Below are positions 50,691 through 57,237 of a stretch of 64,000 nt of DNA, piece after piece (the stretch's first letter is position 1; each line of letters begins with the position of its first letter). The notes beneath the pieces are model-generated. The model was given only the letters and a program-made list of their open reading frames with translations. It had not been told where the DNA came from and did no database searches. This DNA is from Myxococcota bacterium (lineage in GTDB: Bacteria; Myxococcota_A; UBA9160; UBA4427). Location of the stretch: positions 1,152,001-1,216,000 of the forward strand of contig OZ252299.1 of the NCBI GenBank assembly GCA_965250285.1. Reading direction: 5' to 3'. The position numbers and the translations under genes are program-made.

Positions 50691-51881
50691 ATGGCCAAGG
50701 AGAAGTTCGAGCGGACGAAGCCCCACGTGAACGTGGGAACGATCGGACACGTTGACCACGGCAAGACGACGCTGACGGCAGCGATCACGCAGCGGCAGGC
50801 TGCGAAGGGTCTGGCGGATCAGATGCGTTTCGACCAGATCGACAAGGCGCCGGAGGAGCGCGAGCGCGGTATTACGATCGCGACGGCGCACGTCGAGTAC
50901 CAGACCGAGGGTCGCCACTACGCGCACGTCGACTGCCCCGGCCACGCGGACTACGTGAAGAACATGATCACGGGTGCCGCTCAGATGGACGGCGCGATCC
51001 TGGTGGTGTCGGCAGCCGATGGCCCGATGCCGCAGACGCGCGAGCACGTTCTGCTGGCTCGCCAGGTGAACGTTCCGTACATCGTGGTGTTCCTGAACAA
51101 GGTGGATCAGGTCGACGACGAGGAGCTGCTCGAGCTGGTCGACATGGAGATCCGCGAGCTTCTGAACGGCTACGAGTTCCCGGGCGACGACATCCCGATC
51201 ATCCCGGGCTCGGCGCTGAACGCGCTCGAGGATCCTTCGAACGACGAGAACAACAAGTGCATCGATGATCTGATGGATGCGCTGGACGCGACGATCCCCG
51301 AGCCTGAGCGTGCTCTGGACAAGGACTTCCTGATGCCGATCGAGGACGTGTTCTCGATCACGGGCCGCGGGACGGTTGTGACGGGCCGCATCGAGCAGGG
51401 CGTGATCCACACGGGTGATGAAGTCGAGATCGTGGGCATCAAGGACACGACGACGACGACGATCACGGGCGTGGAGATGTTCCGGAAGCTCCTCGATGAG
51501 GGTCAGGCGGGCGACAACGTGGGCTGCCTGCTTCGCGGTACGGCGAAGGAAGAGGTGGAGCGCGGTCAGGTTCTGGCCAAGCCCGGCTCGATCACGCCGC
51601 ACACGAAGTTCAAGGCTCAGGCGTACATCCTGACGAAGGACGAGGGTGGTCGTCATACGCCGTTCTTCAACGGGTACCGGCCGCAGTTCTACTTCCGGAC
51701 GACGGACGTGACGGGCGTCGCGAACCTTCCGGACGGGACGGAGATGGTGATGCCGGGCGACAACGTCGAGATGACGGTGGAGCTGATCACGCCGATCGCG
51801 ATGGACAAGGAGCTTCGGTTCGCCATCCGTGAGGGTGGCCGCACCGTCGGCGCCGGCGTCGTCGCCGAGATCATCGAGTAA
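50691..51881 (+). CDS. tuf: Elongation factor Tu (copy 2)
   Basis: Protein identical to copy 1. Confidence 0.99.
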
Positions 51882-51979
51882 CTGTTTTCGCTCACGGCGA
51901 CTTGGGGTCGCCGTGAGCTGAGCGATATGAAGCTGCTTCCGGGTAACCGGTCTCGAGCTGAGCGACATGGAGCCACTGC

Positions 51980-52294
51980 ATGGCTGACGCAACGGCAAAG
52001 ATTCGCATTCGCATGAAGGCGTTCGACTACAAGCTGCTCGATCAGAGCGCGGGCGAGATCGTCGACACCGCCCTTCGGACGGGTGCGCGCGTGGCGGGGC
52101 CGATCCCGCTGCCGACGGACATCAACAAGTACACCGTGCTGCGTGGCCCGCACATCGACAAGAAGTCGCGGGAGCAGTTCGAGGTGCGCACCCACAAGCG
52201 CCTGATCGACATCCTCGATCCGACGCCGCAGACGGTGGATGCGCTGATGAAGCTCGAGCTCGCCGCGGGTGTCGACGTGGAGATCAAGCTGTAG
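51980..52294 (+). CDS. rpsJ: 30S ribosomal protein S10
   Basis: GPIPLPT and SREQFE..THKRL motifs. Confidence 0.98.
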
Positions 52295-52296
52295 CC

Positions 52297-52947
52297 ATGG
52301 CGAACATCGACGTCGTCAACATGAAGAATGAGAAGGCGGGCTCCGTCGAGCTGGCCCCGGCCGTGTTCGAGGCCGAGGTCAAGGAGCACCTCTTTCATGC
52401 CGAGGTGCGGCGACAGCTCGCTCTGCGCCGCGCGGGTACGCATGCGACCAAGAACCGCGCGCTGGTGTCGGGCGGCGGTGCGAAGCCGTATCGCCAGAAG
52501 GGCACGGGCCGCGCCCGGCAGGGTACGACGCGTGCGCCGCAGTTCGCCGGTGGTGGTGTGGTCTTCGGCCCGGTGCCGCGTGCGTACGACCACAAGCTGC
52601 CCAAGAAGGTGCGGGCCGCTGCGCTGAAGAGCGCGCTCTCGCTGCGCCAGGGCGAAGGGGCCATCAAGGTCGTCGACGCCTTCGACGTGCCCGAGTTCAA
52701 GACGAAGCAGATCGTCGCGATGCTCGAGGCGCTCGGCGTGGCCGGCCAGAAGACGCTGATCGTGAGCGCCGAGCCGAACGTGCAGCTCGAAGCGTCGGCC
52801 CGCAACATCCCGGGCGTATCGGTGATCCGAGCCGAGGGCCTGAACGTGTACGACGTGCTCCGACACGGCCAGCTCGTGCTCGCGCAGGACGCCGTCGCCG
52901 CACTGACTTCGCGGTTCGATCGCAAAGCTGCGGGAGAGGAGGCCTAG
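52297..52947 (+). CDS. rplD: 50S ribosomal protein L4
   Basis: [14 protein letters not shown] and GGVVFGP motifs. Confidence 0.97.
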
Positions 52948-52949
52948 TC

Positions 52950-53237
52950 ATGGAGCTGCATCAGGTCATCCAGAAGCCGCTCATCACCGAGAAGAGCTCG
53001 ATCGGTCGTGAGGAACAGAACCTCGCGACGTTCGCCGTCGACCCGAACGCCACCAAGCACGACATCCGGCGCGCGGTCGAGACGCTCTTCGAGGTCGAGG
53101 TGAAGACCGTTCGGACGATGCGCCAGCCCCGCAAGAGCCGCCGCGTGGGCATGAAGATCGGCCGCCGAGCGGAGTGGAAGAAGGCCATCGTGGAGCTCGC
53201 CGAGGGCCACTCGATCGAGTTCTTCGAGGGAGTGTAG
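52950..53237 (+). CDS. rplW: 50S ribosomal protein L23
   Basis: PLITEK and WKKAIV motifs. Confidence 0.97.
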
Positions 53238-57227: not shown

Positions 57228-57237
57228 GGATTCGACC

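Follow-up and report, generated by a model that had tools for sequence, protein, structure and literature searches.

The canonical S10 operon carries rplC, the gene for ribosomal protein L3, between rpsJ and rplD. In the Myxococcota genome studied here (G000; 6.25 Mb in the single contig C1) this slot is empty, which raises the questions of where the gene resides and how its expression might be controlled. The window, which is the whole 64,000-nucleotide stretch of DNA that was analysed, contains tuf, rpsJ, rplD, rplW, and rplB, after which the other S10 genes stand in canonical order. The 3' end of rpsJ (...AAGCTG TAG) is followed by CC and the ATG of rplD (Table 1), confirming the 2-nt spacer described in an earlier note on this DNA, and neither neighbour carries a fused L3, as S10, L4, and L23 are all of full, normal length by their NCBIfam matches. 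Two copies of tuf, identical in protein sequence, are found 17 kb apart (window 50691-51881; G000:C1:1185764), and the contigs of many relatives end inside tuf, just upstream of rpsJ.

The single copy of rplC lies outside the window

A genome-wide search for uL3, as the earlier note had proposed, gave one PF00297 match in G000, and tblastn with that protein revealed no second copy. The gene is located about 3.63 Mb from the rpsJ–rplD junction; unlike its counterpart in the canonical S10 operon, it has been excised, leaving the 2-nt spacer behind, and has a promoter-like site of its own. It contains no internal stops, and its product matches TIGR03625 with 268.8 bits (cut-off 142.9; residues 5–208, model positions 2–202) and PDB entries with E-values down to 6e-61. 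rplC is therefore absent between rpsJ and rplD because its single intact copy sits elsewhere. The description of the gene as missing is correct for the canonical slot and incorrect for the organism, and the loss of an essential L3 is contradicted by the intact copy.

Table 1. Features of the S10–spc cluster in the window and of the relocated genes on contig C1 of G000. Plain positions are those of the window.
Feature	Position	Strand	Evidence or remark
rpsJ (uS10), 104 aa	51980..52294	+	NF001861 161.7 bits, TIGR01049 146.4 bits
CC spacer, 2 nt, at the usual rplC slot	52295..52296	+	sequence
rplD (uL4), 216 aa, ATG at 52297	52297..52947	+	TIGR03953 242.4 bits
rplW (uL23)	52950..53237	+	NCBIfam match
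rplN–rplE spacer, 1 nt, rplX (uL24) slot empty	56684	+	rplN ends 56683, rplE starts 56685
rplE–rpsH spacer, 10 nt, rpsN (uS14) slot empty	57228..57237	+	
promoter-like site	G000:C1 4837411-4837383	-	TCGACA-17-TATATT
leader hairpin	about G000:C1 4837238-4837189	-	conserved predicted structure
rplC, GTG start, 215 aa	G000:C1 4837182-4836535	-	TIGR03625
rlmE-like gene	G000:C1 4836431-4835817 (L001:693-1307)	-	TIGR00438 below cut-off
rplX (uL24)	G000:C1:6234099-6234425 (L304)		outside spc operon
S14, 101 aa	near G000:C1:5397923-5398225 (L305:1498-1800)	-	

The split operon predominates in the phylum

The high conservation of the order from which this genome departs was borne out by other phyla, where 66 of 67 loci are rpsJ–rplC–rplD and a contig end truncates the remaining locus. 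The split arrangement is not peculiar to this genome. A match to rpsJ was found in 33 of 41 genomes, three of which were not fetched, and all 30 fetched loci, that of G000 included, have rpsJ–rplD–rplW–rplB, 24 of them likewise with a 2-nt spacer. Comparison of S10 operon order across the phylum (n = 121) revealed rpsJ joined to rplD in 109 of 118 scored genomes; eight, in three families, are canonical, one has rplC–rplD without rpsJ, and three were unscored. Within the class (151 genomes searched) rplC and rplD are adjacent in none of the 137 genomes in which both could be placed, the genomes in the class and phylum counts including kin and hence not being independent, and the two genes are megabases apart in all four genomes that have both on one contig. 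Thirteen named loci with an L3 identity of 61–71% are titled Myxococcota or Myxococcales (nine), Deltaproteobacteria (two), and Spirochaetaceae (two).

The frequency of the rpsJ–rplD junction in the phylum, and the lack of any rplC–rplD pair in the class, indicate an old lineage trait and not an assembly error. The rearrangement is inherited and shared by most of the sampled phylum, and it is virtually certain that the relocation of rplC itself is real. The genome is metagenome-derived, with an estimated contamination of 3.9%, and it might be supposed that rplC was dropped artefactually at the junction or that the distant copy comes from a contaminating organism. This supposition is refuted by the comparative data and must be judged exceedingly improbable: the same junction recurs in the fetched loci and in most of the phylum, and the L3 of G000 groups with the class at 99% in the tree described below. 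Assembled short-read contigs, used in place of raw reads, contain no rplC at the junction; a contig of 8,148 nt from run X1, which may be the source sample and so does not give independent support, covers 51851–52900 across it at a depth of 43 with 0 differences. X1 likewise covers the rplC locus in one contig without differences and at a similar depth (38.1, compared with 43.1 at the junction).

The rpsJ–rplD gap could be used as a marker of the phylum, and it calls for caution in pipelines that expect all 16 syntenic r-proteins on one contig. G169, a single contig (L148/L149), keeps rplC beside rplD but has rpsJ on the opposite strand at a distance of 1.9 Mb, so that here the operon is broken at another point. 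In L309 (G256:C6) and G196:C79 the spc genes are on another contig than rplD despite room on the rplD contig, suggesting a break inside the S10–spc cluster in G256 and G196; L309 keeps rplN–rplX–rplE intact.

Phylogeny of the relocated L3

A quick maximum-likelihood tree of L3 (115 proteins, including 25 outgroup rows) placed all 83 relocated copies, plus one long-branch outgroup, on one side of a branch with 95% SH-aLRT, and the seven sampled phylum members with rplC beside rplD fell outside this group. In a control tree of L2, made by a quick method from 43 rows (both trees being based on about 220–275 columns), deep branches were unresolved and the split-operon genomes did not form one group, with six changes needed. 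The two trees agree on the shallow groups f15/f26/f29/f35/f37/f45, f24/f33/f39, f19/f32, and f41/f43. The simplest reading is that one ancient event took place in the common ancestor of most phylum members, in which duplication or transfer of rplC would have been followed by clean deletion from the operon.

Where the copy that survived came from is a separate matter. It could have been acquired horizontally in that ancestor and have replaced the native gene, as might be expected from the separation of relocated L3 from the canonical-position L3 of the same phylum, a split that L2 lacks, and from the S14 of this genome, which looks like a similar replacement (101 aa, without zinc motif, and beside an L31-like gene). 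We consider a foreign origin unlikely, since the 25 outgroup rows include no donor, with only one long-branch Cloacimonadota row at the base, and since the agreement of the shallow L3 and L2 groups fits vertical descent after the event. Such an origin would be compatible with the L3-leader explanation developed below.

The rplC locus and its neighbours

The promoter-like site before rplC is of the sigma-70 type, with one such site found compared with 0.1 expected. Downstream of rplC on the same strand are a gene for an RlmE/FtsJ-like methyltransferase and then a VOC-family gene. The methyltransferase scores 161 bits with TIGR00438, below the curated cut-off of 300.15, which is reached by no genome in the class or phylum samples. 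Its best PDB matches are MRM2 and FtsJ, and the complete tetrad Lys29, Asp117, Lys157, and Glu192, which we take to be the K-D-K-E catalytic tetrad of RlmE/FtsJ 2'-O-methyltransferases, is invariant in the five aligned sequences. In the class, rlmE follows rplC within 400 nt in 118 of 148 genomes, with 21 of the others having it 0.4–30 kb downstream, eight on another contig, and one unlisted; in many genomes of genus g14, insertions of 2–27 kb separate rlmE from rplC, or rlmE is on another contig. Outside the class the two genes adjoin in 16 of the 53 genomes with an rlmE match, across eight families, which suggests that the linkage is old. The relocated rplC probably forms its own transcription unit, likely together with rlmE.

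In G000, rplC is 80 kb from dnaA. A move toward the origin as the general cause was rejected for the phylum, as the direction varies among genomes, rplC being nearer to dnaA than rplD is in G035, G031, and G064 and farther in G170, G236, and G212. On G000:C1, rplC falls in the 135-kb interval that separates dnaA (4.756 Mb) from the GC-skew minimum (4.891 Mb), and the main r-protein cluster lies about 0.5 Mb from the GC-skew maximum. G000 has one rRNA operon only.

A conserved hairpin precedes rplC

About 20–55 nt before the rplC start is a predicted hairpin with a lower stem and a variable upper one, between which A-N-G faces C-CAA-U. The alignment comprises 19 distinct upstream regions, which two short motifs had singled out among 43 loci of the class, and has 11 invariant columns with 91.4% of cells paired. 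Covariation was 0.176, compared with 0.070 after shuffling, and slid controls reached no more than 0.081. Compensatory changes occur at three of ten pairs, in the flanking stems only, since the invariant core pairs never vary and hence give no covariation. The hairpin is accordingly a conserved 5' structure of an r-protein gene with covariation, as expected of an autogenous r-leader. In G000 the lower stem lies downstream of the promoter-like site and ends a few bases before GGGAG.

A covariance model built on the alignment gave matches in 41 of 150 genomes of the class. All 36 matches with E<1e-3, of which at least 11 and at most 15 were training sequences, are directly upstream of rplC on the same strand, and all belong to the family of G000 (36 of its 48 genomes); there was no match at rplC in the other 102 class genomes. 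Six weaker matches lie elsewhere than rplC, and G000 itself has a single match. No Rfam family matched the rplC locus at E<=1, the L19 leader RF00556 included. In an RNA run, a single contig of depth 3 links the leader of a relative to rplC, a weak indication of a common transcript, and RNA run X14 gave distant fragments only.

The hairpin core resembles an internal loop of 23S rRNA

The invariant core of the hairpin matches a 3x1 internal loop of 23S rRNA in the helix 96 region (E. coli 2680-2684/2725-2727). The 23S rRNA of G000 has CCAAU at 2734–2738 and AAG at 2779–2781, which by anchor numbering we take to be the two E. coli strands. A 3x1 loop closed by these pairs is supported by 22 23S sequences, in all of which C2681, U2684, and A2725 are invariant and in which pair 2680–2727 alternates between C-G (18) and U-A (4). 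The 23S loop positions that vary are also variable in the leaders. The rRNA match considered at first, GACGAAC/GUUC of the helix-96 stem, was dropped because the invariant leader bases are those of the loop. L3 presumably contacts the 2680-2684/2725-2727 loop, and L14 and L19 are also near H96. Against such a contact, the available text of two papers places L3 on helices 94–95 and domain VI (PMC2995063, PMC9508819), and in the accessible part of a third, L3 occupancy strengthened the density of domain VI except H96 (PMC9687910).

The leader of G000 has the two strands of the 3x1 loop in reverse order relative to 23S rRNA, as do those of f33, f24, f39, f40, f38, and f21; the order is native in f19, f20, and f31. 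A first descriptor of the loop, fixed in advance, was rejected as too loose after failing a shuffle control (31/39 compared with 21.4 by chance, 50/71 with 31.6, and 9/73 with 14.1). A strict descriptor with a folding filter was tuned on the discovery sets, in which 16 of 39 and 21 of 71 regions matched, and was fixed before the held-out regions were fetched. There it was found in 14 of 40, compared with 0.1 from shuffles, or 12 of 37 once three loci already seen were removed. It was absent from all 73 rplC genes in the canonical position and from the 11 held-out genomes that belong to the class but not to the family of G000, and it occurred in one of 1200 other upstream regions of G000. Many relocated rplC genes have a short leader that lacks the loop, and those of the remaining families of the class are among them. 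The idea that the leader loop tracks base 2682/2683 of the 23S rRNA of each lineage was not supported, with the loop bases equal to the genome's own 23S in G000 and G200 and not in G206, G210, G246, G217, G166, G170, and G164.

Two variants were noted. Genus g6 (L003, L018, L224, L225) has a leader ending ...GGCAG CCUCU (U/G)GCGAGGAG, which carries the commonest rRNA loop sequence, yet fails both the descriptor and the covariance model. Family f21 (L184, L187, L189, L190, L249, L250) has, downstream of the loop hairpin, a second element GACUCC-A(A/C)(A/C)AAG that is complementary to the GGAG ribosome-binding site and may be a switch partner.

Possible feedback by L3

According to the available text of PMC10931766, the S10 operon of E. 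coli is regulated by L4. Outside this operon rplC loses the shared control and would need a feedback of its own, which mimicry of rRNA by the leader would supply. On the strength of the sequence match, the hairpin is a candidate autoregulatory leader, and it seems probable, though well short of assured, that it serves feedback by L3. By analogy with the L1, L20, S8, and S15 leaders (PMC7247131, PMC10931766), surplus free L3 would bind the leader loop next to the ribosome-binding site. Since the stem ends just before GGGAG, and since the 3' arm of the hairpin contains Shine-Dalgarno-like bases in f24/f33/f40, bound L3 would be expected to hinder 30S loading and so block translation of rplC. During growth, nascent 23S rRNA would outcompete the leader for L3. 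These steps beyond the match are ones that we infer.

Alternatively, the relocation could be a neutral rearrangement and the hairpin could bind L14, L19, RlmE, or another factor, or serve only to stabilize the mRNA. The many relocated rplC genes with short, loop-free leaders would be expected in that case, as would the failure of leader and own rRNA loop bases to covary, and the removal of single genes from the cluster has precedents in the consulted portion of PMC8046335. RlmE as the ligand is made plausible by its adjacency to rplC in most of the class and by its being an rRNA-binding enzyme itself; against this, in the family of G000 rplC keeps the hairpin even when rlmE is no longer its neighbour (genus g14, 23 of 23 matches), and f19 and f21, which have no rlmE match, still carry the loop. 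Every strong covariance-model match being at rplC also argues against another ligand or a neutral origin, which on balance we consider rather unlikely. Feedback by L3 through the leader remains the preferred reading.

Relation to known systems

Like the rRNA-mimic r-leaders for L1, L4, L20, S8, and S15, as set out in the accessible text of Eckert and Weinberg 2020 (PMC7247131), the hairpin is a structured RNA before an r-protein gene, has a narrow lineage range, and has a core resembling an rRNA element. Several scaffolds would serve one ligand, as in the S15 and L20 leaders of that paper; unlike in those leaders, the same loop is used here in two strand orders. L3 is absent as a ligand from the consulted part of Table 1 and from Table S1 of PMC7247131; supplement file 2 of that paper has 255 mentions of rplC, an archaeal record included, which may bear on novelty. 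If the leader binds L3, it would add a new ligand to the known r-leaders, define a minimal RNA, roughly 40 nt long, to which L3 binds, and represent one rRNA loop reused in two permutations. The L19 leader (RF00556), in the portion of Yao et al. 2007 consulted (PMC1913097), is also a small bulged hairpin with a variable terminal stem and a conserved asymmetric internal loop, and it adjoins the ribosome-binding site of an r-protein gene that has its own transcript, as rplC probably does; it differs in preceding rplS in Firmicutes and in that its authors found no homology to the rRNA site.

Exits of single genes from this r-protein cluster are already known. In the available part of PMC8046335 a gene leaves while a copy exists elsewhere, with duplication and then deletion being proposed, as is the case here; those exits are in Gammaproteobacteria and Bacilli, with four in-depth cases that do not include rplC, whereas the present one extends to most of a phylum. 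The literature searched, with subscription journals mostly outside it, described neither a move of rplC in Myxococcota nor a leader for L3, and rplC appears only as a marker gene in the accessible text of PMC4765838.

Other genes gone from the cluster

The slots of rplX (uL24) and rpsN (uS14) are empty in the window as well. L24 is unlinked from L4 in all 19 sampled genomes of the order of G000, compared with linkage in 94 of the other 99, and rplN joins rplE directly in all 10 fetched loci of the order. In G000 rplX stands alone, with a promoter-like TTGAC site, and is followed by an L33-like gene. Inspection by eye of 11 upstream regions for a leader shared with rplX revealed the promoter-like TTGAC only, and no conserved hairpin was noticed.

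L3 and L24 are described as the two 50S assembly initiators. L3 is cited as an initiator of 50S assembly in the available text of PMC4081057, and L3 and L24 are listed among six proteins essential for the first 50S assembly step in that of PMC10931766. A broader scheme may tentatively be put forward, possible if on the less probable side: L3 would have been removed once in Myxococcota, with a candidate L3-binding r-leader in several lineages that uses two circular permutations of the helix-96 3x1 loop, and the exit of L24 in the order of G000 would have uncoupled both assembly initiators from the cluster, with L3, co-expressed with RlmE as an enzyme of late 50S maturation, acting as a separately tuned gate of 50S assembly.

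The only S14 in G000 is without a CXXC zinc motif, and its gene precedes an L31-like one, which looks as though a zinc-free paralogue had replaced the original S14. At least nine relatives have rplX downstream of the 23S gene, on its strand and at a distance of 2–17 kb; the distance in G000 is 43 kb.
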